64,000 nt of DNA from Methanomassiliicoccales archaeon (GCA_013415865.1 CP058896.1:700921-764920), one strand, 5' to 3'; counted from the stretch's first letter, positions 6,154 through 33,766 are shown. The notes: generated by a model not told the origin, from the letters alone. Program-made: numbers and translations.

Positions 6154-6804
6154 TCATGGGCTCAGTTTGGCCATCATCTTTTTTGCGGCAGAGGCCATTG
6201 CTTCCTTCTTTGTCCCCCCGGTGCCTGTCTCGGTTAGGTCCCCCACTGTGAGCCATGCTTGGAAATATTTTCCATCCTCTGCATCCTCTTCGAAGGTCAC
6301 ATAACGATATTGCACCCTCTGTTGGTCTGACCATTCCTTGACCATACTGATCCAGTCCTGCCTCTCCAATGCCTCGGCCGCCAGGTCCCCCTCGAACAGT
6401 ATCTTCGATATCACCCTCTCGGCGCCCTCGACCCCTCCATCTAGATAGACGGCACCGATTATCGCCTCGACCACGTCCGCAAGCATCTTCTGAGAGGTCC
6501 TCCCTTGCAACGAGTCGCCCACCATCACCAGTTCTTTAAGACCTAATCTTTCTGCCACCTTCCGAAGCGTCGTTCTGTCGGTGAGGACGCTCCTTTTCCT
6601 GGTCAACGTTGCCTCATCGTCCTTCAGGCCTTCCAAGAAGAGTTTCCTGGAGACGATGAACGAGAGCACAGAATCCCCCAAGAACTCGAGCCTCTCATTG
6701 TTCTCTGACCCGACCGACCTGTGCCTCAATGCCAACTCGAGAAGGGAAATGTTCGAGAACTTGTAACCCAGTAGCTCCTCGAGACGCATCATTTTGATTT
6801 CCAT
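6154..6804 (-). CDS. rnc: Ribonuclease III (bacterial type, with dsRBD)
   Basis: NERLEFLGDSVL signature, ADVVEAIIGAVYLD, and C-terminal dsRBD-like G-x-G-x-TKKEA. Confidence 0.9.
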   Translation of the reverse strand: MEIKMMRLEELLGYKFSNISLLELALRHRSVGSENNERLEFLGDSVLSFIVSRKLFLEGLKDDEATLTRKRSVLTDRTTLRKVAERLGLKELVMVGDSLQGRTSQKMLADVVEAIIGAVYLDGGVEGAERVISKILFEGDLAAEALERQDWISMVKEWSDQQRVQYRYVTFEEDAEDGKYFQAWLTVGDLTETGTGGTKKEAMASAAKKMMAKLSP

Positions 6805-6886
6805 CTTCCCTCCTCCCCCTCAGCAAGGCCCAACGCTGATAATAACCCTTTTTATGATGTACTGTGTTGGCGTGGTCGGTCGGGAC

Positions 6887-7663
6887 ATGTACATCATCAG
6901 CGAGCGTATCAATGGGCTTTTCACATCGGTCGGAAGGGCCATCGACAGGAGAGATGCCAAATGGATACAGGACCATGCGCTCCATCAGGTCGAATGCGGG
7001 GCACAGGCACTTGACATCAACGTCGGTCCAGGTAGAGAGGATGGCCCTGCCGCGATGGATTGGCTCATCAGGACGGTTCAGGATGTCACAGACGTCACAC
7101 TCTGCATCGACACGCCCGGTGTGAAGACCATGGCAGCTGGCCTCAAGGCTGCAAAGAACAAGACGATAATGAACTCGACCACCGCAGAGAAGAAGAAGAT
7201 GGATGCTTTGTTTCCGCTCTGCAGGGAATATGGTTCAGACCTGATATGTCTGACGATGGACGAGAAGGGCATCCCGAACGATTCCTCTTCGAGGGCGGAG
7301 CTTGCCATGCTCATGATAACCACGGCCATGGAACATGAGATAATGCCAGACCGATTATTGTTGGACCCTCTGGTGCTGCCGACCAAGGCGGCGCAGGACC
7401 AGGGGATCAAGGTGATCAAGGCGATCGAGATGTTCCAGGCATTGAACGACCCGCCGATAAGGACCGTGGTCGGGCTGAGCAACATATCGAACGGTTGCAA
7501 GGACCGCCAACTTGTCAACAGGACCTATCTCGCCATGCTGATGGGGGCTGGCCTCAGCGCCGCCATCCTAGATCCAGAGGACAAGGCGCTGATGGACACG
7601 ATAAAGACGGCCCGGGTTCTCCGGAACGAGATGCTCTATTGTGACGATTATTTGAGGGCGTGA
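6887..7663 (+). CDS. acsE: Methyltetrahydrofolate:corrinoid methyltransferase (AcsE-like, pterin-binding TIM barrel)
   Basis: MYIISERING, ALDINVG, LCIDT, LDPLVLP, VGLSNIS and NRTYLAM. Start reassigned to the ATG at 6887. Confidence 0.85.
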   Translation: MYIISERINGLFTSVGRAIDRRDAKWIQDHALHQVECGAQALDINVGPGREDGPAAMDWLIRTVQDVTDVTLCIDTPGVKTMAAGLKAAKNKTIMNSTTAEKKKMDALFPLCREYGSDLICLTMDEKGIPNDSSSRAELAMLMITTAMEHEIMPDRLLLDPLVLPTKAAQDQGIKVIKAIEMFQALNDPPIRTVVGLSNISNGCKDRQLVNRTYLAMLMGAGLSAAILDPEDKALMDTIKTARVLRNEMLYCDDYLRA

Positions 7664-8072: not shown

Positions 8073-8133
8073 TCTTTCATCTCCCATTCTTTAATATTTA
8101 TGATGTTTTATATTATTTGATTTTGCAACCCTT

Positions 8134-9210
8134 TCACCCCGTAATATATCCAAAGGAGAGCCCGGCCAAGGTTGACATCAATATCACCAAGGCCCAGTAG
8201 ACAAGGGTCTTCTTCCATCCCATCACCTTTGAGAGGACAACTATGGAGGGGAGGCTGGTCGTGGGACCGGATAACAACAATACCAAAGCAGGTCCAGAGG
8301 CCATCGCCCCGCTTGTATAGCCCAAGGTCCCTCCGATTATTGGCACTTCCATCAAGGTCGGCATGTATAAAAGGGCCCCTATCACAGAGGCCAATAGATT
8401 CGACCAGATATTGTTATCCCCAAGATATGGTTTGAAGGTCTCGGGAGGTACAAAGTAAGAAAATACGCCGACGAAGAACGTACCGACCAGCAATATTGGG
8501 AATATCTTCTTGGTCAGGTCCCACGTCTCTGTCCCCCAATCGGTAACCTCCTCCCTGGTGAAATAATAGATCAGGAGAATGGCCACGCCCAGGGTCAGGA
8601 CATATATTATGGGCATCTTTATCATCCAGTCCAATGTTGAGGCGCCAAATACCAAGATGCCTATCAGAAAGATGAAGAAGATAGGTGTCGTCCATTTTGG
8701 TCTGCTGCTCTCATCCTTGAACTTTAGCATCGGCCTTTCATTGCTGGATCCCTCCGTTCCTTTTGTCTTGAACAAAAAGGACATCACCACGCCAACTACA
8801 ACTGACATGGCTATGGCAAAGATCGCCCTGGCCAGACCTAGATCGAGACCCAATATCTGCGCGGTATAGATCATCGCAAGGACATTGATGGCAGGACCGG
8901 CGAATAGGAAGGTTGTCGCAGGTCCGAGCCCGGCCCCTTTTTTATATATCCCTGCGAACAAAGGAAGAATGGTGCAGCTGCAGACTGCAAGTATCGTTCC
9001 CGATATGGAGGCCACAAAATAAGATTTATATTTTGCAACATTGGGCCCGAAGAACCTCAAGATCGCGTCCTTCTTCACCAACGCTGCGATCGCGCCTGCA
9101 ATGAAGAATGCTGGGACCAGACATGTCAGCACATGTTGGGCCAAATATTCGATCGAAGCATCCATACCGCTTTCCAACGGTCCTAACAGAAAATCCGTCG
9201 TATCACCCAC
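8134..9210 (-). CDS. ArsP/DUF318-type permease
   Basis: HVLTCLVPAFFIAG, AVCSCTILP and FLFAGPAIN; multiple TM segments. Confidence 0.85.
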   Translation of the reverse strand: MGDTTDFLLGPLESGMDASIEYLAQHVLTCLVPAFFIAGAIAALVKKDAILRFFGPNVAKYKSYFVASISGTILAVCSCTILPLFAGIYKKGAGLGPATTFLFAGPAINVLAMIYTAQILGLDLGLARAIFAIAMSVVVGVVMSFLFKTKGTEGSSNERPMLKFKDESSRPKWTTPIFFIFLIGILVFGASTLDWMIKMPIIYVLTLGVAILLIYYFTREEVTDWGTETWDLTKKIFPILLVGTFFVGVFSYFVPPETFKPYLGDNNIWSNLLASVIGALLYMPTLMEVPIIGGTLGYTSGAMASGPALVLLLSGPTTSLPSIVVLSKVMGWKKTLVYWALVILMSTLAGLSFGYITG

Positions 9211-9521
9211 CCCTGTTTGTCCGTCTTCCTTTTGGTCCGTCCCCAGACGAGAATCTCAATACCAAGCGACTTTGATCAAAATCCTGATAGGCCCCAAATG
9301 AATGGCCAAAAACGTCAGATGATAACTCGATTAGGTTCAGGTACCATTTAATCCTATAAATGGCCAATTGTAGTAGACCCAGTGACGCGGAGGTTTCAAA
9401 ATTATAACAACCTGATGGTTCTCTTTGCAGATATGTTGATGTTGCAGACCTGATGGATGAAATCGTGCACGTATTAGCCACCCCCGCCTTGTCGATATAT
9501 ACCTATTATTTTTCGGTTAAT

Positions 9522-9541
9522 ATTTCAATTATATTTGAAAT
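9522..9541. promoter_or_regulatory. Palindromic operator ATTTCAA-N6-TTGAAAT (putative ArsR-type site)
   Basis: Perfect 7-bp inverted arms in an AT-rich divergent promoter region; related copies at 9575, 9821, 11221 and 11625. Confidence 0.55.
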
Positions 9542-9866
9542 GTAAAAATTTAGGATGTTAAAATAGTTTTTCATTTTAAATTAGTTTGAAAATTCTCGTT
9601 AGGTTCGTGTCAAATAATCGACCAACTCAACAATTAAAATGTGTCAAGTCGCCCCCCCCCATGGAGGTCTTGTCGTGAAAATATAAATATAATATTATAA
9701 TAATATTAATTAGCCATATTATATTTACCCAGCGTAATCATCTGTTGATCAATGATGGCATGAAATATTCTCATGAGAATATCAAAAGGTCATGGATGGG
9801 CAACTCGCTAATAAGGATGTTTCAAATTATTTTAAATTGACGAATGGCATATAACGGGTAAAAGCG

Positions 9867-10217
9867 ATGGTGATCGTTGGTGATGATATGGTCGCAAAAG
9901 TGAGAGTGAACATGTTCCCATGCGAGAATAAGACCGAGATAGAGGTCGTTTCAAACTCCGATGGGGACTTTATAATAACTGTAGTAAGTTCCTGCGCGAA
10001 GGCCAAAAAGTTCATCGAAGGTCTGAACCCATTGTCATTGACGGACCTTTCGAATAAGTCCGAGAGCAAGATATTCAAAAAATTTATTGAGTCTGACATG
10101 AGCGCTAACTGTCTGGTCCTATCCGGTGTCTTGACCGCAGGCTGGGTCGAGGCGGGCATGATAGCGAGGTCCATGGCAAAAAAGGGAGTCCCTCTCTCGA
10201 TAGAGTTCATCGAATAA
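9867..10217 (+). CDS. Small Cys-containing hypothetical protein (DUF6951-like)
   Basis: Pattern KVRVNMFPC..TEI..SSC..SANCLV..A..VEAG resembles small anaerobe proteins; family tentative. Confidence 0.5.
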   Translation: MVIVGDDMVAKVRVNMFPCENKTEIEVVSNSDGDFIITVVSSCAKAKKFIEGLNPLSLTDLSNKSESKIFKKFIESDMSANCLVLSGVLTAGWVEAGMIARSMAKKGVPLSIEFIE

Positions 10218-10388
10218 GCGGTATTGAAGGTGGGATCGAATGGTGGTTGGTCACATTCCATTTCAAAATAAGGTGAGCACCGTGCATAAGGACGCAAATA
10301 TGATTATGAGCGGCGCATTTGAGATGATACAATACACCAGTGTTTTCCCTCGGTGAGGTGATGAATATTGAATGGTCATGAGGTTTTG

Positions 10389-10676
10389 ATGGATAAGAAG
10401 AACAAGGAAGAGGAGGAGGAACGTCCTTGTTGTCCATCATCTGCTGCAAGGATGATCAGAAAGGTCATGATTGGTGGAAAGGAGGTTGGGATCGCTCAAC
10501 TTGACCAGATCATTTCTAAGATCTCTAAGATGTCGTTGACCGATGAAAATGAGTTATCATCTGTGCTGATAAAAGAGGTCAAGATCTATAATTACGTACC
10601 TAGATCGAAAGAAAACGAATATCGTAAGGCAGTGATGGAGGAGTACAGGAAAAGGACCCATGGTCCCCAAAGATAA
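10389..10676 (+). CDS. Hypothetical protein with N-terminal CC pair (possible metalloid-binding)
   Basis: PCCPSS...GKEVGIAQLD...NYVP; lies within the ars island. Confidence 0.6.
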   Translation: MDKKNKEEEEERPCCPSSAARMIRKVMIGGKEVGIAQLDQIISKISKMSLTDENELSSVLIKEVKIYNYVPRSKENEYRKAVMEEYRKRTHGPQR

Positions 10677-10777
10677 GAACGCGCAGAGGAACGGGACATT
10701 CATAACTTATGAGAGCCCGTTTTTATTAGGAACCCAGCACATGAAATTCGGATGATGCCCCACATAATGGATAAGGA

Positions 10778-11152
10778 TCATTTTCCTAGCTCTTTGCGTC
10801 CTTTTTCTGTGATGAAGTAGATCCTCCAACGATGTCTTGGGGACGATTCGATAAGCCCTTCACCTTCCAGAATGTTCAGGTGGTATGACAATTTAGAATC
10901 CGACAGACCAGTGATGTCCTTAAGAACACAGGGGCACAGGTCTGTCCGCATCAGAGCGTGGAGTATCTGTAACCTTTTCGGATCTGACATGGCCTGGAAC
11001 AATTTTGCTTGATTTGAAAGATGTTCATTATCTGGTAATTTTTTTTTCAGCTCGCACAACCCCCCGATTTTCAAAAGACTTTCCTTCATTTCTTCAGGTA
11101 GATTGAGAGGGCTCTCGCAACATTGGATGTCTGTCTTTTTCTTATTTTTCAT
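10778..11152 (-). CDS. arsR: ArsR/SmtB family transcriptional repressor
   Basis: SDPKRLQIL, DLCPC and SKLSYHLNIL wHTH; divergent from acr3. Confidence 0.85.
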   Translation of the reverse strand: MKNKKKTDIQCCESPLNLPEEMKESLLKIGGLCELKKKLPDNEHLSNQAKLFQAMSDPKRLQILHALMRTDLCPCVLKDITGLSDSKLSYHLNILEGEGLIESSPRHRWRIYFITEKGRKELGK

Positions 11153-11624
11153 TGACTTTTCAACTCTCTGAAATTAAGATGTGATATCTCACCAAAGACT
11201 TATTGATTTCACCGTACCTTTTCAAGATTTGATGAATGGGTTCTTATCAGAAAGATTATTGGGATCGGTCGTTCAACGAGCTGTAGGTTTCATTAGAGTT
11301 CACACGACGTCAAGGGGGAACCACGGGTCCGGATGTGGTTGGAACCATGGTAAGAATCCTTTATTCGACGTTCGACGTTTGAACCTGCACATATCAACGC
11401 GAAATCTATTCTAGGCCCTCAGTGAAGGAAAGTAGAAGCTCAAATACGATCTGATGATTAAAGCACTTACATATGGAAGGATTGTATATTTTATTAACAG
11501 AGGCGCGTCGAATAATAATCTTTTACCAATGTCCTTAGGGATTGGGCATACGGCCCTTGACGTTCCTTTTTTTAAATCCGTAACGATGGTTAGGAACTTA
11601 TTAAATATCTGAAAAATGTTTCAA

Positions 11625-11640
11625 TTCAATATTAGTTGAA
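11625..11640. promoter_or_regulatory. TTCAA-N6-TTGAA palindrome upstream of acr3
   Basis: TTCAATATTAGTTGAA about 35 bp before the acr3 start, nested in a wider TTTCAAT...ATTGAAA inverted repeat. Confidence 0.55.
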
Positions 11641-11674
11641 ATATTGAAAGAACGATGTTGGGGGGCGTTATGGA

Positions 11675-12790
11675 TTGCTTGATGATGAGATCGGGGTGCA
11701 ATCGGTTCCAATTGTGAAAAAATTGTCATTCCTGAACAAATACCTCACGATCTGGATATTCTCCGCTATGGCATTGGGGGTCGGATTGGGCGTTGTCGTT
11801 CCAGAGCTTGCCGATGCTCTTGATCGGATGAGCGTCGGAACGACCTCTATACCCATAGCGATAGGGCTCATACTGATGATGTATCCTCCATTGGCCAAGG
11901 TCAAGTATGAAGAGCTTGGACAGATAACGAAGCAGCCTGAAGCAAAGAAGATGTTCGGGACGTCCTTGGCCCTCAATTACATCGTCGGTCCGCTTCTTAT
12001 GTTCTCTCTCGCCTGGATATTCCTTCCCGAACAACCTGAATACAGGATCGGCCTAATCCTCACCGGTGTCGCTAGATGCATCGCCATGGTGCTGGTATGG
12101 AACCAACTGGCTGAGGGGGACAGCGAATATGCGGCCATATTGGTGGCATTGAACTCTATATTCCAGATAATCTTGTACTCATTCTACGCCTACTTCCTCA
12201 TCGCTATCCTGTCCGATGTGGTGTCGCCCGGGTCTGGGGTGGCCGTGGATATTTCCATCGTATCGGTGGCGATCAGCGTCATCATCTATCTTGGCATACC
12301 TTTCTTTGCTGGAATATTGAGCAGATACTACATACGTCCTCGAAAGGGGGCGGATTGGTATGACAACGTTTTCATGAGCTCTGCTGGCAAGATGTCGCTG
12401 TTGGCACTCCTTTTCACCATAGTGGTCATGTTCTCGTTGAGGGCCGAGACCATCATCGACTCTCCGCTGGACGTCGTCCATATTGCCATCCCGTTGCTGT
12501 GTTATTTCGTCATCATGTTCCTGTTCTCTTTCTGGCTTTCGATGAGGTTCAACTATGATTACGCACATGCGGCGACACAGTCCTTCACGGCCGCAAGCAA
12601 TAATTTTGAGCTTGCCATAGCTGTGGCGGTGGGAGTCTTCGGAATAGGCTCGGCGGTCGCCTTCGCGACCGTGATCGGACCTCTCGTTGAAGTGCCTGTC
12701 CTGATATCGTTGGTTAACCTGGCCCTTTACTTCCGCCGTAAATATTATGATGAGCACGGAAGGATCAAAAGGCGCTCGACGGGGGCCTGA
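11675..12790 (+). CDS. acr3: Acr3 arsenite efflux transporter
   Basis: MMYPPLAKV, ARCIAMV, SNNFELAIAVA and GPLVEVPVL. Confidence 0.95.
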   Translation: MLDDEIGVQSVPIVKKLSFLNKYLTIWIFSAMALGVGLGVVVPELADALDRMSVGTTSIPIAIGLILMMYPPLAKVKYEELGQITKQPEAKKMFGTSLALNYIVGPLLMFSLAWIFLPEQPEYRIGLILTGVARCIAMVLVWNQLAEGDSEYAAILVALNSIFQIILYSFYAYFLIAILSDVVSPGSGVAVDISIVSVAISVIIYLGIPFFAGILSRYYIRPRKGADWYDNVFMSSAGKMSLLALLFTIVVMFSLRAETIIDSPLDVVHIAIPLLCYFVIMFLFSFWLSMRFNYDYAHAATQSFTAASNNFELAIAVAVGVFGIGSAVAFATVIGPLVEVPVLISLVNLALYFRRKYYDEHGRIKRRSTGA

Positions 12791-13014: not shown

Positions 13015-13626
13015 ATGGTGATAGAAGAGATCGACCTTTATCGTTTGAGCGCGGATGTCCTGGAGAACTATCTCCCGACCGATAAGAGCCCGCCTGAGGG
13101 CTTTGGGTCCTGGGGGGATTTCGCGAAGGCATTGACAGATGGCAAGGCCAGAGCATCCGATTGTAAAAAGATCGACGGTAAGATGGCCTTTGCCATGGAT
13201 GCTGTCCTGAGCATAGATATCCATTTGCCTGAGAGCGACCCAATGCAAAGGAAGGTGCCAGAGGTCCTCTTCGAGTACAACTCGCCTGATGTGGGCTCGC
13301 CTGTGTTGCTCACCAGCAACTCGGTCATCACTCACCAGATCTTGAAGTTGGTCCTTGATACGGCCAAAGTGAAGGCCTTCGTGATTCCAGTTGACACTAA
13401 TGGTTACACGCTGGACAACGCAGTCATCACCGGTAACTTCACCCCCATGGGGGTGCTGAAGGCATTGACCGATAGCAACATTGCTGCCAAGACCGGGGCA
13501 AAGAGGGCAGTGCTCCCGGGTCTGGCGAAGGACCTGAAGAACAATATCGAGCGGGCCACAAGATGGAGCATGGAGGTAGGTCCGGTCAGCGCGTTCGAGC
13601 TTCCATTGTATCTTCTGACCAGATGA
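13015..13626 (+). CDS. Truncated AcsC/CdhE (CFeSP gamma)/HgcA-like corrinoid-binding protein with degenerate Fe-S domain
   Basis: PDVGSPVLLTSN, DTNGYTLDNAVITGNF, LPG and WSMEVGPVSAFELP match the AcsC C-terminal corrinoid-binding domain. The N-terminal YLP...FAKAL..GKA...C resembles the AcsC Fe-S domain. Confidence 0.75.
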   Translation: MVIEEIDLYRLSADVLENYLPTDKSPPEGFGSWGDFAKALTDGKARASDCKKIDGKMAFAMDAVLSIDIHLPESDPMQRKVPEVLFEYNSPDVGSPVLLTSNSVITHQILKLVLDTAKVKAFVIPVDTNGYTLDNAVITGNFTPMGVLKALTDSNIAAKTGAKRAVLPGLAKDLKNNIERATRWSMEVGPVSAFELPLYLLTR

Positions 13627-14411: not shown

Positions 14412-15320
14412 TCAACGGGGAAGAAGGCCCGCATCCTTCACGATCTCAGGTATTATCTCCTCCCATGCGACGGCCATCAAGTGAACGCCGTGGACCCCTT
14501 CTATGCCCTTGAGATGCTCGATCTGCTCGAGACATAACCTTGCTCCCTCTGCCTTTTGGTCCGAGGCCTTTTTCATCCTGTCGATTACCTCGTCGGGCAC
14601 GATCATCCCTGGGACCTTGTTCTTCATGTACAGGGCCGCCTTGTGCGATCTGATCGGCATCACCCCTGCCAAGATATGGGCCATCTCATGGAGGCCCATC
14701 GACCTCACCTGCCTCATCCAGGACTCGAACCTTCCGACATCATAGACTGCCTGGGTCTGGATGAAATCGGCCCCTGCCGCGACCTTTTTGGCCAGCCTCC
14801 TCGCCCGGTATTCGAATGGGTCGGCGAAGGGATTCGCGGCCGCTCCAAGGAAGAGCTTTGGGGGCTCCTCGAGCTTATCCCCTCCCCATACCTCTGCCTC
14901 GTCCCTCATCCTGCGAAAGATCATAAGCTGTTGGACAGGGTCGACGTCGTAGACGTTCTTGGCCTCTTTCTGGTTCCCGAACGATTGGTGGTCACCGCTT
15001 ATGCAGAGCACGTTCCTTATACCAAGCGCGCTCGCCCCGAGGATGTCCGACTGCATGGCTATCCTGTTCCTGTCCCTGCAGGTCATCTGTATGATCGGTT
15101 CCAGGCCCTCCTGGAGGCAGACCACCCCTGAGGCGATGCTCGAGAGCCGGACGATCGCTGTCTGATTGTCCGTAAGATTGAAAGCATCGGCGCTTCCCTT
15201 CATGACCCTCGCGTGCCTTCTGATGACCTCGGCGCTAGCTGACTTTGGTGGACCTATCTCTGCCGTGACCGCGAACCTTCCTTTCGAAAGAACGGCCTCC
15301 AGGTTGCTGCCCGCCTTCAT
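14412..15320 (-). CDS. metF: Methylenetetrahydrofolate reductase
   Basis: TAEIGPPK, NLTDNQTA, CRDRNRIAMQSDILGA and GADFIQTQ. Confidence 0.93.
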   Translation of the reverse strand: MKAGSNLEAVLSKGRFAVTAEIGPPKSASAEVIRRHARVMKGSADAFNLTDNQTAIVRLSSIASGVVCLQEGLEPIIQMTCRDRNRIAMQSDILGASALGIRNVLCISGDHQSFGNQKEAKNVYDVDPVQQLMIFRRMRDEAEVWGGDKLEEPPKLFLGAAANPFADPFEYRARRLAKKVAAGADFIQTQAVYDVGRFESWMRQVRSMGLHEMAHILAGVMPIRSHKAALYMKNKVPGMIVPDEVIDRMKKASDQKAEGARLCLEQIEHLKGIEGVHGVHLMAVAWEEIIPEIVKDAGLLPR

Positions 15321-16021
15321 CTCGATGCCCCCTTTGCCCTTTTCTCCTCATCGGTCAGCACTGCCTCTTTCCTGACGACCTTCCTTGGACCGCCGCTCCT
15401 GCTGGGCCGCCAATCCCTCGGTGGTATGGGGACATCCATCAGATCTGGACGGCCGAGCCTCTCAAGGCTGTTATATATCTGGTCCCATGCGCAAGGAACG
15501 TCAGGGCCGATCTCGCATCTGCCGCCCTGTGAGCCGCCGCAAGGACCGTTCATCAACGACTTGGAGCACCTGGCCACCGGGCATATCCCCCCTGTCAGAT
15601 GCAGGACGCAGTCCCCACATCCCCCGCATTTTTCAAGATAGATCCCATGTTCCTCTGGGGCCCCCATGTTAGAGGTGTTCAGGCCGGGGACCACCCTGAT
15701 GTCCGGGTACATTTCCTGGACCACCTGGGCACCGACCCCGCAGGCCAGGGAGATGATGCAATCCTTCCCTATGATGGCCTGCTCCAGCTGTGCCACGAAC
15801 TCCTTCTCACATGCCCGTTCCAAGGTCTCCTCCGATATATCCCACCCTTTTGACCTGAGGTCAGAGTGCAACCTCAACGCCTCTGAGAGGACGCCGACCT
15901 CCTTCTCCCCTCCGGCAAGACATATGGCCACGCATGACCTGCAGCCGACGACCAAGATCTCCCTGTGCCCTTCTATGATATCGATGAGCTCCTTGAGCTT
16001 CTTCTGCTCCCCTATGATCAT
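15317..16021 (-). CDS. metV: MTHFR Fe-S/Zn subunit MetV
   Basis: GCRSCVAIC, ACGVG and CGGCGDC...GGICPVARCSKSLMNGPCGG..C; overlaps the metF start. Confidence 0.9.
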   Translation of the reverse strand: MIIGEQKKLKELIDIIEGHREILVVGCRSCVAICLAGGEKEVGVLSEALRLHSDLRSKGWDISEETLERACEKEFVAQLEQAIIGKDCIISLACGVGAQVVQEMYPDIRVVPGLNTSNMGAPEEHGIYLEKCGGCGDCVLHLTGGICPVARCSKSLMNGPCGGSQGGRCEIGPDVPCAWDQIYNSLERLGRPDLMDVPIPPRDWRPSRSGGPRKVVRKEAVLTDEEKRAKGASR

Positions 16022-16022
16022 A

Positions 16023-16433
16023 CTAGGCCCTCCCTTCGAATACCGGCCCCAGCCTCGAGACGCGGGATGCCATCTCCCTTGCGGCCTCGGCGAAACGCCA
16101 TCCCTGGTTCGAAGCGATGTTGAACATCTCCACCCTCTCACCATCTATCCCTAGCTGCGATAGCAGCTCCCTCGCCTGCTCGACCCTTTTCCTTGCCTCG
16201 ATGTTACCGAACTGGTAATTGCAGTTCCCCTCGAGACATCCGACGACCATCACGGCATCGGCCCCATCCCTAAAGGCCTTGATGATATGTTTTACATCAA
16301 CCCTTCCAGTGCAGGGAACGCGGACCGGTATCACGGATGATGGATATTCCTGACATGTGGCACCTGCCATGTCGGCCGCCGAATATCCACAGAATGAGCA
16401 TACTAGAGCTACGATCCTCAGATCAGATGCCCC
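16023..16433 (-). CDS. mvhD: MvhD-like [2Fe-2S] subunit (start ambiguous; possibly fused to the upstream HdrA-like gene)
   Basis: RIVALVCSFCGYSAADMAG, VPCTGRV and GCLEGNCNY. The conserved N-terminus extends upstream of the ATG at 16370 with no ATG/GTG/TTG start. Confidence 0.85.
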   Translation of the reverse strand, partial: GASDLRIVALVCSFCGYSAADMAGATCQEYPSSVIPVRVPCTGRVDVKHIIKAFRDGADAVMVVGCLEGNCNYQFGNIEARKRVEQARELLSQLGIDGERVEMFNIASNQGWRFAEAAREMASRVSRLGPVFEGRA

Positions 16434-18078
16434 CTATCGATGCTTTGATCTGCTCCTCTATCTGATCGTCCCTGAAGGAGCTCAACTGGATCGCCTTGCT
16501 CGGGCATGCGCTGGCGCAGATACCGCAGCCCTGGCATCTGGACTCTTCTATCATCGCCTTCCCCTCAGGACCGATCGAAGGCGCACCATAAGGGCATACC
16601 CTGGCACAGGTCAGGCAGCCAGAGCATTTTTCCTGCCACACCTCCGCCTTCTCCCCTTCATCGAGAATGTCGCCTGCCAGCAGCGCCGATGCCTTGGCGA
16701 CCGCCGACCTGGCCTCCAAGCTCGGCCCTATCCCAAGGCTTCTCTCTACCGCAGTTCCGCAGATGAAAACCCCTTCTTTCAAAGATGATGATGGTTTGAG
16801 CTTCGCATTCGGTCTTCTCAACCTCCCATTGTCATCCAACGGGAGCCCGAGCGCCCTGGCCGTCCCATGCATATCAGGCACCTTTGTGATGTTGTCGATG
16901 ACCACCATGTCATGATCGATCTCAAGGGTCCCGCCTAGGCCAACATCGCGGACCAGCATCTTGCCCTCTACTGTCATGTCAGGCATGGAGTCGGTCCTGA
17001 TGATGATCACGCCCAACTCCTGTGCACGGCGATAGCCGTGCTCGCACTGGCCCAGTGCGAAGACCTCGCGCGTGATTATGTAGACGACCGTCCTCGGCGC
17101 CATGCTTTTGAGATAAAGGGCATTGTGCACCGCCTCATGGGTGGACAACGGGTCGAACGCGCTCTCCCCGGCATCGTCCATGGCCAACATGACCACTGTT
17201 CCGTTTGGCCTGTTGCCCGAGCGGAGCATCTCCTCGAGCTGTCTCTGGTCTATGACATTCCCTTTTATCTTTGACCGAAGAGGGTTGTCCATGGGCACCT
17301 CATCCATCGCGACGATGACCGCCCCTGCGGTCAAGGCCACCTCGCCGAGAGGTGTTCCGACCCGAATTTGAAGGTCTCCAAGACCTCCCTCAGCGCTGAT
17401 GACCTCCGATGATGTCGATATCGCAAAGGACCTTCCCGCCTTCCTGCAGAACGCTTCGAACCCGTCCTCCTCGAGCGAGACCACCTCATCGTCATGTCCT
17501 TCGTCCCCGAGCCGCTCTGAGGGGCAGATGAGCGTCACCTCATGACCCAGGGCGACCGCCTCTCTGGACGCGACCTTGGCGCTGTTACCATTACCTATGA
17601 TCAATATCGAGCTGTTGACCTTCTTATTTCTGCTGGAGGGTGTTGGTTGCAGCATCATGCACCTTCTCAAGGAACCTCGGAGCATCATCTTGGCCTTGGC
17701 CGTTGCTTCGGGCACACCATGGACCAATGCGGAATGCTCCTTGATGTTGCACACCTCGACCAGCGACCGGTCCAGACCTGCCTCTGTCGCCAACCGTTTG
17801 AACCGTCCGATAGAGATCTTATAAGAGCAACCTGCGACGATGAACCGGTCGACCTCGCCGGAGAGGAGGGAGAGGCGCATCCTGTCCTTATCCTCCCCTT
17901 CACAACAATTTTCGAGCACCTCGGCCGACCTGACATGCTGGAACATCAGCATGTCCTCCTTTAATGCTTCCAGATCGATCCTCCTGGCCACATCTCCCTT
18001 GCATCCACAGAGGAACACCGCCACCCCCTTCGGCGGGGACAATGGCGCGTGGGGCCCGTCTGGAGATGGTGGTATCAT
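16423..18078 (-). CDS. HdrA/QmoB-like Fe-S flavoprotein homolog, degenerate FAD site
   Basis: HdrA N-domain (VFLCGC, IVAGCS, NIKEH), weak IIGNGNSA dinucleotide motif, GVFICGT, and C-terminal 2x[4Fe-4S]. Confidence 0.8.
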   Translation of the reverse strand: MIPPSPDGPHAPLSPPKGVAVFLCGCKGDVARRIDLEALKEDMLMFQHVRSAEVLENCCEGEDKDRMRLSLLSGEVDRFIVAGCSYKISIGRFKRLATEAGLDRSLVEVCNIKEHSALVHGVPEATAKAKMMLRGSLRRCMMLQPTPSSRNKKVNSSILIIGNGNSAKVASREAVALGHEVTLICPSERLGDEGHDDEVVSLEEDGFEAFCRKAGRSFAISTSSEVISAEGGLGDLQIRVGTPLGEVALTAGAVIVAMDEVPMDNPLRSKIKGNVIDQRQLEEMLRSGNRPNGTVVMLAMDDAGESAFDPLSTHEAVHNALYLKSMAPRTVVYIITREVFALGQCEHGYRRAQELGVIIIRTDSMPDMTVEGKMLVRDVGLGGTLEIDHDMVVIDNITKVPDMHGTARALGLPLDDNGRLRRPNAKLKPSSSLKEGVFICGTAVERSLGIGPSLEARSAVAKASALLAGDILDEGEKAEVWQEKCSGCLTCARVCPYGAPSIGPEGKAMIEESRCQGCGICASACPSKAIQLSSFRDDQIEEQIKASIGGI

Positions 18079-19307
18079 TTCCTCCCCTCCAGGTATTTCT
18101 TCACCTTTGCGGCGGCGACGGCCCCTTCCATCGAGCTTTCCTCGATGTCCTTAGGGCCAGCGCATGTGCCGGCGAACACCACTCCCTTCTCCTCGAGCGT
18201 CCTCGCCTGCCTGCCCTCTGAGAAAAAGAAACCATGGGGATTGAGCTTTGCGCCGATGGTCTCAGCGATCTCCTCGTTATGCGGCGAAGGTCTCATCCCG
18301 ACGGACAGTACCACTAGGTCAAAGGCCTCCTCCACCACACCAAGATCGCCGGGAAGGGCATATCTCATTACGGGGCGACCGTCATCTCCAGTGAACACCT
18401 CGGAGGGCCTCGACCTTATTGCCCTGACGCCCTTCTCGAGAGAGGCCCATTCGAGAAGGTCGTCCCCCCTCTCCAAGGGTCGCCAGTCCATGAAGGTGAA
18501 GGTGATCTCGGTGGCCGGCGACATGGCCTTTATGAGCTTAGCTATCTTCATCGAATATTTGCAGCAGACCTTGGAACATAGATGCGCACCGAACCTGGCA
18601 TCCCGGGAACCGACACATTGGATGAAACAAATTTTCCCGGGCCTGCCTGAAGCTATCCTCCTGCCAAGCTCGTCCATTTTTCCGATGCCTCTTTCAACCT
18701 CCAGGGAGGTCACTACGCCATCGACCACGCCATAGCCTAGCCTCCTGTCGGCGGACGGGTCGAACGGTACCGAGCCTATGGCCACTATGATCGCGTCCGC
18801 CTCGACCTCCAATGTCTCCTCCTCTCCCTCAAGGTCTATTGCCCCCTGAGGACAGGCCACTGAGCATTCCTCACACCCGTTCCTTGTATGAGCGCACCTT
18901 TCCTGGTCGATGCAGAAGAAAATGCCCTCCCTTGCACTGTACATTGTGATCGCTGAGCCTTTGCATGCTTCCATGCATCTTCCACACCTGGTGCATATCT
19001 CATCATCGACCAGCTTGGACCGGGACAATGTCGCTCTATACCTACCGGACCTTCTTTCCAACATCTCGAGCTTTGAGTCCTTGATGGTGATGATTTCATC
19101 CGACCCTGCCACGATCGCGACCTTGTCCGTCGCCAGGCAGACGTCACATCTGACACATTGTCTGACGCCCTTGCAGGCCAGTTCATTCGCGGTCCCTCCG
19201 ATGCATGGCGATCTTTCGACCAGGATGGGGCTGAATCCGAACCTAGCAAGAGCAAGCGCGGCAGAGATGCCTGTCGTCCCACCGCCCAATATCAGGACGT
19301 GGGCCAA
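18075..19307 (-). CDS. HdrA/QmoA-like FAD/Fe-S protein
   Basis: ILGGGTTGISAA, inserted ferredoxin domain, IQCVGSRD...CSKVCC and GPKDI; TTG start after GGAGGGG. Confidence 0.85.
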   Translation of the reverse strand: MAHVLILGGGTTGISAALALARFGFSPILVERSPCIGGTANELACKGVRQCVRCDVCLATDKVAIVAGSDEIITIKDSKLEMLERRSGRYRATLSRSKLVDDEICTRCGRCMEACKGSAITMYSAREGIFFCIDQERCAHTRNGCEECSVACPQGAIDLEGEEETLEVEADAIIVAIGSVPFDPSADRRLGYGVVDGVVTSLEVERGIGKMDELGRRIASGRPGKICFIQCVGSRDARFGAHLCSKVCCKYSMKIAKLIKAMSPATEITFTFMDWRPLERGDDLLEWASLEKGVRAIRSRPSEVFTGDDGRPVMRYALPGDLGVVEEAFDLVVLSVGMRPSPHNEEIAETIGAKLNPHGFFFSEGRQARTLEEKGVVFAGTCAGPKDIEESSMEGAVAAAKVKKYLEGRK

Positions 19308-19473: not shown

Positions 19474-20313
19474 ATGCGACGGTGCTCGATCACGGTCGAT
19501 GTCGACAGGGATGTGAACCAGGCGGTCGCTGGCAAGGTATGTGCGATATCTATGGAAAAAGATGGCAGCACCGAGCCGAGGTTCAGCTCTTCTGCCAAAG
19601 GACTTGAGGTGATCGTGGATGTCCTCAACGGTCTGGATGTCCAAGGTACTTTCTTTTTTGAGGCCAGGACGGCAATTGAAATATCTAAGGTCATTGACCT
19701 GCCCTCCTTGATGAGGGGGCATGAGGTCGCTTGCCATGGATATGACCATGAGGATCTTACTGGGCAAAAGACAGGGTCTCCATTGGGACCTGGAGAATTG
19801 GACGACATCCTTGAGAGGTCGATCTCAGTGGTCCGAGAGCTTTTCGGGGTGTCCCGCATGGGTTTCAGGGCACCGTACCTCTCTTGTGATGACCTCGTCG
19901 AGAAAGAGCTTGTGAAAAAGGATTTCATCTATGATTCTTCAAAGGTGACCTCCTTGAGCAACGGCGTCATCGGACCGTTCATCACTGAGAACGGCATCGT
20001 AGAGGTGCCAGTTGCCTCTGGGACGGACGCGGATGGAAAGAAGATCGTAGGGTATCTATGGCCGATGCATGAGGGAAAAAGGAAGGTGGGGGACTATATC
20101 CATCTGATGGGGCAGTTCGAGGATGGCCTCTTGGTCTTCGCGACGCATAGCTGGCATATGGTCGAGAACTTCTGTTCGGGTCTGCTCTGCGCCACAGATT
20201 CAAGGGCGCAGAGGGACAACCTTCATGAGCTCATCTCCAAAGGCATGGACATGGGCCTTGAGTTCGTCAGGGTCGATGACCACCTGTTTGAGCATGGACC
20301 GAGGGCCTTATGA
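19474..20313 (+). CDS. Polysaccharide deacetylase (NodB-like) family protein
   Basis: ITVDVD, GTFF, HEVACHGYDH, GFRAPY and YDSS. Confidence 0.85.
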   Translation: MRRCSITVDVDRDVNQAVAGKVCAISMEKDGSTEPRFSSSAKGLEVIVDVLNGLDVQGTFFFEARTAIEISKVIDLPSLMRGHEVACHGYDHEDLTGQKTGSPLGPGELDDILERSISVVRELFGVSRMGFRAPYLSCDDLVEKELVKKDFIYDSSKVTSLSNGVIGPFITENGIVEVPVASGTDADGKKIVGYLWPMHEGKRKVGDYIHLMGQFEDGLLVFATHSWHMVENFCSGLLCATDSRAQRDNLHELISKGMDMGLEFVRVDDHLFEHGPRAL

Positions 20314-20939
20314 AGAGCGCACGGCAAGGAGAGATGTGCTATCTCCCTTCCTTGGAAAGGGCATGGGACATGCTGGCGGACCTGGACCTTAGAGTGGCGG
20401 CCGAAAGGGCCGGCGGACGGGCCGAAGGGTCCATGATATTGATAAGGATGCTCAATGGCGAGGCGTCCATCGAACCAGGAAGGAGAAGGATCGAATGTAA
20501 TGTTCCAGGCTCTGGGTTCCTCCTCGAAATAGTGGTCCTGCATTACGTGAAAGGATGCCTGGACAACGCCCCATCGAAAGGGAAGGAATGGCTGCTCTTC
20601 AGACAATTGCCGGGCGGGGAGGTGTTCCAGCCCGCGTTCCAAAAGAGGGTCGTCCAAGGGATCGCCAAGAGGTTCTCTTCCCGGCCCGATGAACTTTTGA
20701 GGGCCGGTCTCTCCCTAGGTGGAAGAAAGGAAGATCTCGGCGATGCGACGGTGGTGCTTCCTTTCTTTCCTAGGCTCGAGGTCAGGGTCACGGTGTGGGA
20801 GGGTGACGATGAGGTGCCTGGCAGTGCGACGCTCCTCTTCTCTCCAGAGACGCCGTCCTTGCTCCCGACCGAGGACCTGACCGAGGTGGGAGAGGTCGTT
20901 CTTTCCGCCCTTTTAAAGGCCGTCAATAAAGGCCGGTGA
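20310..20939 (+). CDS. DUF3786-like protein
   Basis: VVLHY, W..FRQLPGG..F, FPRL and WEGDDE....ATLLF....LPTEDL. Confidence 0.75.
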   Translation: MKSARQGEMCYLPSLERAWDMLADLDLRVAAERAGGRAEGSMILIRMLNGEASIEPGRRRIECNVPGSGFLLEIVVLHYVKGCLDNAPSKGKEWLLFRQLPGGEVFQPAFQKRVVQGIAKRFSSRPDELLRAGLSLGGRKEDLGDATVVLPFFPRLEVRVTVWEGDDEVPGSATLLFSPETPSLLPTEDLTEVGEVVLSALLKAVNKGR

Positions 20940-22596
20940 TCTTCCCGTTCTCGTCGATGTCCATCTTCAATGCCGCCGGCTCCGAGGGCAGACCGGGGAT
21001 CAGCATGATCTGCCCGCATATCGGCACGACGAACCCCGCACCGGCGGAGACACGGACCTCTCTCACCTTCAAAGTCCATCCGCGGGGGGCGCCCTTCAAT
21101 TTTGGATTGTCGGTTATCGACAGCTGGGTCTTCGCCATGCAGATCGGAAGGTTACCATAACCAGACTGTTCTATCAGCTTCAGGTTCCTCTCGGCCTCGC
21201 CCTCGAAGATGACGTCCGCCGCACCATAGATCTCGGTGGCGATGGTCTTTATCTTCTCCCTTAGAGGACGGTCCGAGGAGTACAGCAATCTGAACTCGCA
21301 GGGCTCGTTCTCAAGGACGTCGAGGACCGCCTCAGCGAGCTCCCTCCCTCCCTTTCCACCTTCTGCAAAGACCCTGGACACGGCGCATCTCACGCCCTTG
21401 TCCTTGCAATGCCTCCTCACGAGGTCTATCTCTTCCTGGGTATCTGTATCAAAGAAGTTGATCGCCACAACGACCGGTACGCCGAACTTGCGTATGTTCT
21501 CGATGTGCTTGTCGAGGTTCTCGAAGCCCTTCCTGAGAGTGAGGCAATCACCTTTGCATATCTGGTCCAGCGTGGCGCCTCCGTGCATCTTGAGGGCCCT
21601 GATGGAGCACACGATCACCGCGCAATCGGGCCTCAGGCCGTTGCTCCTGCACACGATGTTGAAGAACTTCTCTGCACCAAGGTCGGCTGCGAACCCCGCC
21701 TCTGTCACCACTATGTCAGCGAGCTTCAGGGCATACTTGGTCGCGATGATGGAATTATTACCGTGGGCGATGTTGGCGAACGGGAACCCATGGATGAAGA
21801 AGGGATCACCCTCCAATGTCTGGACCAGGTTGGGGCTCAGCGCATCCTTAAGCAACATGGCCATCGCCCCCACGCAGCCCAACTGCGATGCGGTGACGGG
21901 CTTCCCCTGGTAGGTGTAGGCTACGATTATCTTGCCAAGCCTCTCCTTGAGGTCGGACATTGAGGTCGACAGTGCCAATACCGCACTTATCTCGGAGGCG
22001 GCCGTCACGATGAACGACGATTCGTGCGGCGTTCCGCCCTCGGTCCGGCCGCCGAGACCTACAACAATGTTCCTCAGCTCGCGACAGTTCATGTCCATGG
22101 CCTTGCTCAGGACGATCCTTGTCGGGTCTATACCGAGCGAATTGTCCCTGGATACGTGGTTCTCAAGGACCGCGGAAAGGAGGTTGTGCGCTGCTGCGAC
22201 GGCGTGTATGTCGCCAGTGAAATGCAGGTCTATGTCCCACATGGGATAGACCTGAGAATAGCCACCACCGGTCGCCCCTCCCTTGATGCCGAAGATGGGG
22301 CCCAGTGACGGTTCTCTCAACGCCCCCATGACCTTCTTGTCCATTCTGCCGAGGGCCTGCACCAGCCCTATGGTGGTGACGGTCTTTCCCTCCCCTGCGG
22401 GAGTGGGGGTGATCGCCGTCGTCAGGACCAATTTACCGTTCGGCCTTTGGTCGAACCGCTTCAGAACGTTCAATGGGACCTTTGCAATGTATCTTCCATA
22501 AGGTATGATCTCTGATTCTTGGATGCCCAACTTCTCAGCTATGTCACCGATGGGCCATGCTTTCGCATCCTGGGCTATCTCGATGTTCGACCTCAT
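20923..22596 (-). CDS. fhs: Formate--tetrahydrofolate ligase
   Basis: TPTPAGEGKT, LREPSLGP, GGATGGG, PFANIAHG, EAGFAADLGAEKF and CMAKTQ. Confidence 0.97.
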   Translation of the reverse strand: MRSNIEIAQDAKAWPIGDIAEKLGIQESEIIPYGRYIAKVPLNVLKRFDQRPNGKLVLTTAITPTPAGEGKTVTTIGLVQALGRMDKKVMGALREPSLGPIFGIKGGATGGGYSQVYPMWDIDLHFTGDIHAVAAAHNLLSAVLENHVSRDNSLGIDPTRIVLSKAMDMNCRELRNIVVGLGGRTEGGTPHESSFIVTAASEISAVLALSTSMSDLKERLGKIIVAYTYQGKPVTASQLGCVGAMAMLLKDALSPNLVQTLEGDPFFIHGFPFANIAHGNNSIIATKYALKLADIVVTEAGFAADLGAEKFFNIVCRSNGLRPDCAVIVCSIRALKMHGGATLDQICKGDCLTLRKGFENLDKHIENIRKFGVPVVVAINFFDTDTQEEIDLVRRHCKDKGVRCAVSRVFAEGGKGGRELAEAVLDVLENEPCEFRLLYSSDRPLREKIKTIATEIYGAADVIFEGEAERNLKLIEQSGYGNLPICMAKTQLSITDNPKLKGAPRGWTLKVREVRVSAGAGFVVPICGQIMLIPGLPSEPAALKMDIDENGKITGLY

Positions 22597-22730: not shown

Positions 22731-23618
22731 ATGACGGCTCGTTTGATAGATGGTAACGTTGTTGCGGAGGCCATAAGGTGCGATCTAAGGGAGAAGGTCT
22801 CTAAGCTGGCCTCAAAAGGGGTCCGTCCCGGTCTCGCCGTCATCATAGTCGGGGAGGACCCTGCCTCCCAGACATATGTAAGGATGAAAGAGAAGGAATG
22901 CTCCGATCTGGGCATCCTTTCAAGGACCATAAGGTTACCGACGGACACAAGGGAGGAGGAATTGTTGTCCATCATCGATGACCTGAACATCGACGATGAG
23001 GTCCATGCAATGCTCGTCCAGATGCCCCTACCAAAGCAGATAGACCCGCAGAAGGTCATCATGAGGATCGCCCCGGAGAAGGATGCGGACGGGTTTCATC
23101 CAGTGAACGTAGGGAAGATGCTCATCGGCGACAGGTCAGGTTTTCTGCCATGCACCCCGCATGGGATCCAGGTCATGATGGAGCGCTCGGGGGTAATGAC
23201 CGAGGGGAGGCACGTGGTAATCTGTGGGAGGAGCAACATAGTCGGAAAGCCCATGGCCGCCCTACTCATGCAGAAGGGCAAGGGAGCGGATGCCACCGTG
23301 ACCGTCTGTCACTCTAGGACCAGGGACCTGGCCCATCACACAAGACAGGCAGACATCCTGATCGTGGCCATGGGGGTCCCTGGATTCATTAAACAGGACA
23401 TGGTCAAGGAAGGGGCGGTGGTCATTGATGTCGGCATGAACCGTGTCGAGGACCCGACATCAAAAAAAGGGTATAGGCTGGTAGGGGACGTGGACTTTGA
23501 AGAGGTGAGCAAGAAGGCCTCTGCGATAACTCCTGTGCCCGGGGGTGTTGGCCTGATGACAAGGGTGCTGCTCATGGAGAACACGATAAAGGCCGCCGAG
23601 AACAGTCTTGCCAAATAA
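22731..23618 (+). CDS. folD: Methylene-THF dehydrogenase/cyclohydrolase
   Basis: YVRMK, KDADGFHP, PCTP, GRSNIVGKP and ITPVPGGVG. Confidence 0.97.
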   Translation: MTARLIDGNVVAEAIRCDLREKVSKLASKGVRPGLAVIIVGEDPASQTYVRMKEKECSDLGILSRTIRLPTDTREEELLSIIDDLNIDDEVHAMLVQMPLPKQIDPQKVIMRIAPEKDADGFHPVNVGKMLIGDRSGFLPCTPHGIQVMMERSGVMTEGRHVVICGRSNIVGKPMAALLMQKGKGADATVTVCHSRTRDLAHHTRQADILIVAMGVPGFIKQDMVKEGAVVIDVGMNRVEDPTSKKGYRLVGDVDFEEVSKKASAITPVPGGVGLMTRVLLMENTIKAAENSLAK

Positions 23619-33765: not shown

Positions 33766-33766
33766 C

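Follow-up and report, generated by a model that had tools for sequence, protein, structure and literature searches.

A split HdrA pair in a methylene-tetrahydrofolate reductase operon of a Methanomassiliicoccales archaeon: candidate electron paths and a conserved four-cysteine loop

With what does a methylene-tetrahydrofolate (methylene-H4F) reductase exchange electrons when its genes share an operon with two dissimilar HdrA proteins and with no HdrBC? The question is raised by a 64,000-nucleotide stretch of the genome of a Methanomassiliicoccales archaeon (GCA_013415865.1, CP058896.1:700921-764920; the window in what follows), on whose minus strand hdrA1, hdrA2, mvhD, metV and metF follow one another in this order between positions 14412 and 19307. 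The electron partners of Hdr-type methylene-H4F reductases have been unknown since the Moorella enzyme, and a 2026 paper still gives the third carrier as unknown. The operon is best read as encoding a type IV methylene-H4F reductase, the kind known from Moorella and Sporomusa, in a variant form without HdrBC genes in the operon; this variant is a simpler test object because it has one intact flavin site, no NADH insert and, in a methanogen, a known disulfide substrate.

All five genes are intact. hdrA1 (18075..19307) encodes a flavin-bearing HdrA core of 410 aa, made of a domain resembling thioredoxin reductase (TrxR) plus an inserted ferredoxin; hdrA2 (16423..18078) encodes an arm-carrying HdrA of 551 aa with an N-terminal Fe-S domain (N-domain), a degenerate TrxR-like domain and, C-terminally, a 2x[4Fe-4S] domain; mvhD (16023..16421) encodes a [2Fe-2S] adaptor of 132 aa; metV (15317..16021) the Fe-S/Zn subunit of the reductase (234 aa, 14 Cys; PF12225); and metF (14412..15320), present in a single copy in the genome, the reductase flavoprotein (302 aa; PF02219). 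Neighbouring genes overlap by 4 nt (ATGA) at two junctions and stand 1 nt apart at the other two, and homologs of hdrB, hdrC and hdrD were found in none of 92 Methanomassiliicoccales loci (some of which are the same genome twice), which confirms the compact operon without hdrBC described in an earlier, sequence-only reading of this DNA. The TTG start of hdrA1 is preceded by a GGAGGGG site, and its product is identical to database protein P0001. The start codon of mvhD is CTG (16421-16419), because of which the open reading frame (ORF) finder placed the start 17 codons late; most orthologs have ATG at the same position, and the CTG may lower translation relative to the neighbouring genes. A frameshift fusion of hdrA2 with an mvhD lacking ATG was considered and ruled out, as the orthologs mostly have ATG there and separate genes; here and in 39 aligned relatives mvhD stands as a gene of its own, set off by a stop codon and a 1-nt gap. 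Promoter and terminator scans gave chance-level results only, and an Atlas search returned nothing beyond generic FAD/Fe-S cluster names.

The first step toward an answer is the relation between the two HdrA proteins. Residue equivalences were taken from an alignment to HdrA of M. thermolithotrophicus (5ODC), with positions counted by hand. HdrA1 retains the GxGxxG motif, the equivalents of K187, E356 and K409 (K46, E205 and K254), C194/C197, the TrxR-cluster ligands Cys231/244/248/249 and an inserted 2x[4Fe-4S] domain, and has neither the N-terminal nor the C-terminal domain; its model (predicted local distance difference test, pLDDT, 94) finds its best fold match in the 428-residue rigid HdrA core 8rwn_A (template modelling score, TM, 0.81/0.78). 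E356 and K409 have been put forward as the signature for recognising bifurcating flavins (PMC9430772), and GxGxxG, E356, K409 and the TrxR [4Fe-4S] ligands of bifurcating HdrA are all present in this genome's HdrA1. HdrA2 possesses the N-domain cysteines Cys24/26/59/84 and the C-terminal 2x[4Fe-4S] domain; GxGxxA replaces GxGxxG, the K409 position is occupied by His, and the CVGSR..CC cluster, C197 and the inserted ferredoxin are absent. Its flavin site is degenerate in 41/41 rows, the single flagged match lying upstream of the coding part, and its model (pLDDT 90) reaches a TM of up to 0.75 against full HdrA chains. The sequence-only reading had thus described both proteins correctly, the first with an intact FAD motif and cysteine cluster and no N-domain, the second with N-domain and C-terminal ferredoxin, a degenerate FAD motif and no CVGSR..CC cluster. 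Because the domains are complementary, the pair holds one each of flavin, TrxR cluster, inserted ferredoxin and arm, a division which matches that between the rigid core and the mobile arm of solved HdrA. A natural fusion also exists: the 822-aa protein P0123 carries HdrA1, HdrA2 and MvhD homologs in a single chain (a search for longer fused forms returned 14 proteins, one with the four-cysteine loop discussed below). Domains, conservation and this fusion together bear out the complementarity of the two halves that had been claimed, and HdrA1 and HdrA2 are best read as a putative asymmetric HdrA dimer, a flavin core paired with a flavin-degenerate arm carrier; a heterodimer has likewise been inferred for the tandem HdrA pairs of anaerobic methanotrophic archaea (ANME; PMC9012536). 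Co-folding of HdrA2, MvhD and MetV gave a median of 0.46 against 0.35 with HdrA2 replaced, a margin too small to be evidence either way.

Other HdrA forms occur in the same genome. In the HdrA linked to mvhDGA (1013 aa) the two parts follow each other in the same order, and here both CVGSR motifs are intact. A second split HdrA consists of a 342-aa flavin core (L002:7853-8881; G000:C1:375855-376880) and, 13 kb away, a 377-aa arm-only protein (L003:6412-7545; G000:C1:389414-390544) comprising N-domain, C-terminal ferredoxin and MvhD, without a TrxR domain.

Are the two hdrA genes functional at all, or are they decaying leftovers beside a MetVF that works alone? The divergence of HdrA2 (mean column identity 28%), successive losses across the order, up to complete absence from five loci of the family here called f7, and hdrA ORFs that are split in some relatives could all be taken as signs of decay. 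However, the ratio of nonsynonymous to synonymous substitution rates (dN/dS) lies below 0.45 for both genes in 12/12 pairs drawn from relatives, this genome being in none of them (0.09-0.23 for hdrA1, 0.12-0.44 for hdrA2), and cluster ligands are invariant in 67/67 rows both in the C-terminal ferredoxin of HdrA2 and in MvhD (Cys8/37/62/67). In most genomes where hdrA ORFs are split, fhs, folD, metV or metF is split too, a sign of assembly indels. Purifying selection acts on both hdrA genes, and they are functional; the decay that the sequence-only reading had itself held up as the alternative is already largely refuted, and we regard it as very improbable.

A further feature of HdrA1 was missed by that reading and lies in the loop after the Rossmann motif, where the canonical protein has only C194 and C197 and HdrA1 has C45-K-G-x3-C51-x2-C54-x2-C57 (19137..19175, minus strand). 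The motif is intact in 37/37 synteny-picked orthologs that cover the site, from a set of 41 sequences made up of this genome and 40 regions taken from the best stand-alone matches among 60 relatives (four of the 41 are truncated or split at the motif), and it is carried by 105 of 120 homologs among the matches listed. The four invariant cysteines probably bind an extra [4Fe-4S] cluster near the flavin. Since C197 normally ligates the N-domain cluster of the partner, such a cluster would lie near the site of the N-domain cluster.

The motif is also found outside the archaea. A related form, C-K-A-T-x2-C-x2-C-x2-C, is found in 410-aa proteins whose named members are Desulfobacterota, and in a metagenome survey limited to the best 80 of 615 loci, many of them on short contigs, 54 loci carried the motif, four of these being of archaeal type. 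metV lies within 5 kb of 22 of these 54 genes, one motif locus stands in an operon for acetyl-CoA synthase (ACS) and CO dehydrogenase (CODH), another between fhs and folD, and three loci (L137, L140 and L147) combine metVF with an HdrD-like gene. The partner gene is again without the TrxR cluster and is often fused to MvhD; behind the pair there is often hdrBC or an HdrD-like gene split at a stop codon, which may encode selenocysteine. The K409 position is Arg in 45 of the 54 motif genes and the inserted ferredoxin is absent in 12, while 24 of 35 partners have no N-domain detectable by a profile built mostly from archaeal rows, several of these ORFs visibly beginning at the Rossmann motif. A tree was built from 105 HdrA cores, for which the archaeal rows were thinned to every second one, the other rows of alignment A2 were all kept, and HdrA cores without the motif were added from the loci. 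It was made by a quick method with midpoint root and only the Shimodaira-Hasegawa-like approximate likelihood-ratio test (SH-aLRT) as support, and no Qmo sequence was identified in it. The 43 motif-bearing rows stand apart in this tree from the remaining 62 (support 100), and the 28 archaeal rows fall into a single clade. The four-cysteine HdrA1 marks a separate HdrA clade that bacteria also have and that is often found beside metVF or hdrD. Some of these bacterial pairs have further attachments: two fusions of HdrA2 with MvhD (L149:9660-12620 and L166:2586-5018) are extended by a molybdopterin-dinucleotide-binding domain, that of L149 additionally carries a glycine-cleavage H (lipoyl) domain, and in L168 the pair lies beside genes for 2-oxoacid dehydrogenase E2/E3. 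In some bacteria, then, the partner may be a lipoyl disulfide.

Within the order, metV is found in 57 of 149 genomes, 52 of the 58 outside f7 and 5 of the 91 within it; f7 is taken to be the host-associated family because of its size, its small genomes and a statement in PMC6147122 that other members lack metF. The order hdrA1-hdrA2-mvhD-metV-metF is syntenic with fhs/folD across Methanomassiliicoccales. A search of GTDB with a back-translated motif pattern gave 52 loci, 48 labelled Methanomassiliicoccales and four only Methanobacteriota or Thermoplasmata archaeon, each of which shows further cluster genes as far as its contig extends; a looser pattern, applied to 401 genomes of the phylum, matched in f1 (7/7), f3 (1/1), f5 (2/2), f6 (6/6) and f7 (0/48), with three further matches outside the order. 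Among the orthologs, parts of the complex have been lost stepwise, in counts that come from related, non-independent genomes with losses not tallied on a tree. Of 38 informative genomes, 9 have lost the inserted ferredoxin of HdrA1; 4 of 39 lack the N-domain of HdrA2, and these four are all among those nine; the K409 equivalent is kept in 31 of 41 orthologs and is Arg, Ala or Gly in the other ten. E356 (40/40), the TrxR cluster (41/41) and the four loop cysteines never vary, and the constant core consists of flavin, E356, TrxR cluster, four-cysteine loop, C-terminal ferredoxin and MvhD. Finally, in the five f7 genomes with metVF, hdrA1-hdrA2-mvhD are cleanly absent together (5/5), the deacetylase-fold gene next to the operon and acsE being retained.

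The direction of electron flow can be approached through energetics, calculated with potentials of -200 mV for methylene/methyl-H4F, -414 mV for H2, -500 mV for ferredoxin and -140 mV for the heterodisulfide of coenzymes M and B (CoM-S-S-CoB). Transfer from CH3-H4F to the heterodisulfide yields -11.6 kJ/mol and transfer to ferredoxin costs +57.9 kJ; splitting the electrons of two CH3-H4F between heterodisulfide and ferredoxin costs +46.3 kJ (+27 with ferredoxin at -400 mV), or +23 kJ per methyl. The sequence-only reading had called upon confurcation to drive an endergonic CH3-H4F oxidation; this cannot stand as worded and confurcation is not needed, because oxidation by the heterodisulfide is exergonic on its own. 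We tentatively favour, at a level that falls somewhat short of probable, a complex of HdrA1, HdrA2, MvhD and MetVF that passes electrons from CH3-H4F to the heterodisulfide via HdrBC or HdrD encoded elsewhere. In such a complex HdrA2 would supply the arm and HdrA1 the flavin, so that the pair would rebuild a single working unit where the usual homodimer has two. Electrons would travel from CH3-H4F through MetF and MetV to the C-terminal clusters of HdrA2 and MvhD and on to the FAD of HdrA1, and from there through the TrxR cluster to HdrBC or HdrD in trans and to CoM-S-S-CoB. The four loop cysteines would hold a fixed cluster near the usual docking place of the N-domain shuttle cluster, which would explain why loss of the N-domain is tolerable. 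The most likely dock for MetV is the MvhD arm, since mvhD, metV and metF also follow one another in this way in systems that have HdrBC or HdrD to fill the other port, as in Moorella and Sporomusa, which have this order and HdrBC as well (PMC9430772). A search for a solved structure of MetV found none. The acceptor must act in trans, because no hdrB, hdrC or hdrD lies near the operon; elsewhere the genome has two hdrBC pairs, four HdrD-like genes and two mvhAG sets. Because inserted ferredoxin, N-domain and K409 have been lost repeatedly, ferredoxin-linked bifurcation is probably not the core function of the family, and a dispensable ferredoxin branch fits a plain two-electron path to the heterodisulfide. 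The purpose would be the conversion of methyl groups, supplied by methyl-CoM through MtrAH or by acetyl-CoA through ACS and AcsE, into methylene- and formyl-H4F and finally, via FolD and Fhs, into formate and ATP, in a cell that would need methylene and formyl units and lacks formate dehydrogenase, pyruvate formate-lyase (PFL) and CODH. A proposal cited in PMC6147122 has the pathway running oxidatively and supplying purine synthesis.

Several points weigh against this path. The acceptor genes are near the operon in 0/92 loci, and the direction and partners of the HdrA-MetVF complex are those that we infer. No canonical bifurcation residue is missing from this genome, nor is either low-potential module, equipment that a plain wire would not need, and motif conservation alone supports the extra cluster. 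MetVF occurs without the Hdr block in the five f7 genomes, stand-alone MetVF accepts electrons from reduced ferredoxin in vitro, in the reductive direction (PMC8760232), and the MetVF of Sporomusa is reported not to have co-purified with Hdr subunits. MtrA was not found in many metV-bearing genomes (0/4 in group g13, 1/6 in g5), and a spare hdrB does not track the operon, this query finding it in 0/10 genomes of g2 and 0/4 of g13, both with metV. This second hdrB paralog belongs to a cluster of mvhD, an hdrD-like gene, hdrC and hdrB without hdrA (L005:5323-8908; G000:C1:1285325-1288907), a possible in-trans partner for either split HdrA; as a dedicated partner it was rejected as not obligate, being found in 37 of 149 genomes and in none of the metV-bearing g2 and g13.

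The genes around the operon, which the sequence-only reading had likewise passed over, belong in part to folate metabolism. Divergently transcribed from hdrA1 is a gene of the NodB/polysaccharide-deacetylase fold (19474..20313, plus strand; PF01522; 51/52 motif loci), followed by a DUF3786 gene (20310..20939, plus; 39/52), fhs for formate-tetrahydrofolate ligase (20923..22596, minus; 46/52) and folD for methylene-H4F dehydrogenase/cyclohydrolase (22731..23618, plus; 41/52). The deacetylase-fold gene stands beside metVF in 5/5 f7 loci without hdrA1-hdrA2-mvhD and tracks metVF more tightly than hdrA does; D9, D11, H88, H92, R132, H225 and H228 are among 48 positions of its product conserved to at least 95% (38 rows), and it is a candidate folate-C1 hydrolase or deformylase. 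On the other side, about 7 kb downstream of the operon, lies acsE for the CH3-H4F:corrinoid Fe-S protein methyltransferase (6794..7663, plus; NF005719 above cut-off), whose true start is probably about 20 codons inside the called ORF; acsBCD and acsV lie just outside or across the start of the window. AcsE connects acetyl-CoA synthase with the compound that MetF makes or consumes; its gene is within the fetched stretch in 34 of 92 loci and adjoins metF in 5/5 f7 loci. acsB tracks the operon better than mtrA, and MtrA as an obligate methyl source was ruled out, being present in 40 of 149 genomes against 57 with metV. The genome contains mcrA, mtrA, mtrH, glyA, acsBCDE and an Fpo-like operon, and searches of it, at 99.8% completeness, gave no match to CooS, a molybdopterin oxidoreductase, PFL or aprA; a prismane-family match of 434 aa was rejected as CooS, since the CooS query finds nothing in the genome.

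This neighbourhood gives some weight to the reverse direction, in which the same complex would use reduced ferredoxin, alone or confurcated with CoM-SH/CoB-SH, to reduce methylene-H4F derived from formate or serine, CH3-H4F then passing to AcsE, the corrinoid protein and acetyl-CoA or to methionine. The reaction is strongly exergonic, at -57.9 kJ with ferredoxin alone and -46.3 kJ per two methylenes by confurcation, and, with MetVF on the arm, no other two-branch mode would be spontaneous; the genome has fhs, folD and glyA, and type II MetVF uses reduced ferredoxin in vitro (PMC8760232). acsB is also found in all five f7 metV genomes, but so it is in 27 of the 91 f7 genomes overall, and CooS and AcsB are joined in one ORF of about 1370 aa in some relatives (G002 and G018, two of five regions checked), CooS not being found in the fetched stretch of the other three (G010, G041 and G059). 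However, the ferredoxin port has been lost in 9 of 38 genomes that retain the rest, the present genome is without a CooS to make CO for acetyl-CoA synthesis, and stand-alone MetVF suffices for the task without Hdr, which leaves the Hdr block unexplained; a methyl-reducing methanogen would, moreover, hardly be short of methyl groups. On balance a reductive role is somewhat unlikely.

The surroundings of the ACS genes hold further observations. Between acsE and the met operon, a low-GC stretch (7830-12790; 43-44% at 8001-12000 against about 55%) with genes for an SO_0444-like permease, an ArsR-like regulator and Acr3 is probably an acquired metal/arsenite resistance island. A stand-alone 203-aa fragment (13015-13626, plus) resembles the C-terminal part of AcsC and HgcA-type corrinoid proteins; a second AcsC/HgcA-like protein is encoded at G000:C1:196077-197054, and the small ORF behind it has a cysteine motif of the ferredoxin type. 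The ACS module itself (L006:5968-14962) comprises acsB, D, C, a CooC-like ATPase, acsV and acsE, with no CO dehydrogenase here. A 351-aa ORF within it (L006:11690-12742, minus) had zero matches in NCBIfam, Pfam and PDB; we take it to resemble the corrinoid-fed core methionine synthases.

The absence of hdrBC from all 92 loci could also mean that MetVF has taken the place of HdrBC at the high-potential port beside the TrxR cluster, an MvhAG hydrogenase docking on MvhD. The complex would then bifurcate the electrons of 2 H2 to methylene-H4F and ferredoxin, or run in reverse, confurcating those of CH3-H4F and reduced ferredoxin to H2 at low H2 pressure, and this is the form in which the confurcation idea of the sequence-only reading works. 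The energetics are suitable (-24.7 kJ for the forward reaction with H2 at 1 bar, -21 kJ for the reverse reaction at 10 Pa), and the two mvhAG sets of the genome offer a hydrogenase. On the other hand, mvhAG was found in none of the 92 loci, the ferredoxin branch that is required has often been lost, and in Moorella, Sporomusa and several metagenome loci HdrBC or HdrD co-occurs with MetVF and should fill that very port. We therefore consider this arrangement clearly unlikely. The second mvhGA set (L004:7498-13399; G000:C1:151497-157395) lies behind a 403-aa ferredoxin/MvhD-like protein and an NfnA/NfnB-like pair, and may form an NADP-linked hydrogenase complex, by which NADPH from FolD could be re-oxidised.

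The most far-reaching alternative is oxidative bifurcation, in which the electrons of two CH3-H4F would be split at the HdrA1 flavin between CoM-S-S-CoB and ferredoxin, pulled by FolD, and the ferredoxin would feed the Fpo-like complex, allowing H2-independent disproportionation of methyl groups to formate and methane. All canonical residues and modules are present in the genome, and an Fpo-like (complex I-like) operon lies within the same window (32308-42648, minus). At +23 kJ per methyl, the cost is the same as for the NAD+-linked oxidation of CH3-H4F that Acetobacterium is reported to run under the pull of a dehydrogenase, and methanol disproportionation has been proposed, with the ferredoxin link named as missing (PMC6147122). 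Yet the reaction is endergonic under standard conditions, the branch has been lost in many orthologs, including all three aligned f6 genomes, described members of the order are said to be obligately H2-dependent (PMC10804542), and no bifurcation is reported to have been detected for the Sporomusa complex. We regard it as distinctly unlikely, and hold just as improbable the fuller proposition that HdrA1 founds an undescribed clade with an extra fixed cluster and that a single-flavin complex bifurcates CH3-H4F electrons to CoM-S-S-CoB and ferredoxin. If that proposition were true, bifurcation would supply the missing ferredoxin link, and methanogens deemed obligately H2-dependent could disproportionate methanol to methane and formate.

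Much would follow from a decision between the plain path to the heterodisulfide, which we favour, and these alternatives. For Methanomassiliicoccales, the operon names the enzyme that decides whether methyl groups can be oxidised at all. The loss series (full complex; no inserted ferredoxin; no N-domain; no Hdr block) provides natural controls for which parts are required for bifurcation. An extra cluster fixed next to the flavin of HdrA, if real, would be a new solution to electron gating in the HdrA family, and such gating would extend to an unstudied clade found beside Wood-Ljungdahl genes in bacteria, the nearest named members being Desulfobacterota.

How does the operon stand among known systems? 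As had been claimed from the outset, its closest relative is the Hdr-type (type IV) methylene-tetrahydrofolate reductase (MTHFR) HdrCBA-MvhD-MetVF of Sporomusa ovata and Moorella thermoacetica, in which mvhD-metV-metF directly follow HdrA (PMC9430772, PMC8760232). In Sporomusa, the 942-aa HdrA carries a pair of TrxR-like domains, of which the first alone shows the E/K signature, and behind them a C-terminal ferredoxin (PMC9430772), a layout that amounts to HdrA1 and HdrA2 in one chain; here the two TrxR-like domains, the first with the E356/K409 signature, are spread over two genes (E205/K254 in HdrA1, no Lys in HdrA2). The differences are that HdrA is divided between two genes and hdrBC lies outside the operon, that HdrA1 of this genome has an inserted ferredoxin and the second TrxR domain lacks cluster ligands, that neither the 410- nor the 551-aa protein has the NADH-oxidising GltD insert of Moorella, and that the host is a methanogen with genuine CoM-S-S-CoB. 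Clusters of MetFV, HdrA and MvhD have been reported for Ca. Syntrophoarchaeum (PMC9012536) and also for Seep-SRB1g, and a putative Met complex in M. intestinalis has been listed from gene co-occurrence (PMC6085437). The operon is not described in the available text of PMC11264602, PMC2702500, PMC5736913, PMC7824343, PMC10804542 or PMC5109826, and no account of its split architecture or of the four-cysteine loop was found in the literature searched, the main HdrA reviews and supplementary alignments, which may show such pairs, lying outside that search.

The tandem HdrA of ANME (HdrA5/6 and 12/13) share the rule that one copy has Cys197 without the N-domain and the other the reverse (PMC9012536). 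However, the ANME groups all appear to keep their FAD-binding residues, which HdrA2 does not, and no four-cysteine loop is mentioned in the passages of that account consulted. With HdrABC-MvhAGD, Fdh-Hdr and Elp-Hdr (5ODC, 7BKB, 8RVU, 8RWN; PMC12350162) the present proteins share fold and residue equivalences, and in those complexes the arm of one protomer serves the flavin of the other (PMC12350162, legend of Extended Data Fig. 5). They are symmetric homodimers with two flavins and with H2, formate or F420H2 as donor, and their aligned HdrA chains have two cysteines in the loop, together with K409, N-domain and inserted ferredoxin. The QmoAB-like character proposed in the sequence-only reading holds as a resemblance of architecture, since in QmoAB(C) of sulfate reducers two of the subunits resemble HdrA and the second of these is linked to a domain like MvhD (PMC3333476), and HdrA2 is fused to MvhD, as in QmoB, in many bacterial members of the clade. 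Membership is not supported: QmoAB(C) has two FAD, AprAB as partner and usually a membrane subunit, QmoC (PMC3333476), none of which is seen here, where only one flavin site looks intact, HdrA2 and MvhD are separate genes and the aprA model TIGR02061 has zero matches in the 99.8% complete genome. Nor does any Qmo chain appear among the PDB matches of the two HdrA proteins. In sHdrA of Hyphomicrobium denitrificans (6TJR) a minimal TrxR-core HdrA of 349 aa is known, the size of the short HdrA1 forms, from a context of sulfur oxidation and with just 21% identity to HdrA1 in the fold alignment. To our knowledge sHdrA does not bifurcate, and we know of no link between it and MetVF. Set against these systems, the operon is in itself only modestly new; what is both new and testable is the HdrA clade with four cysteines, together with its loss series.

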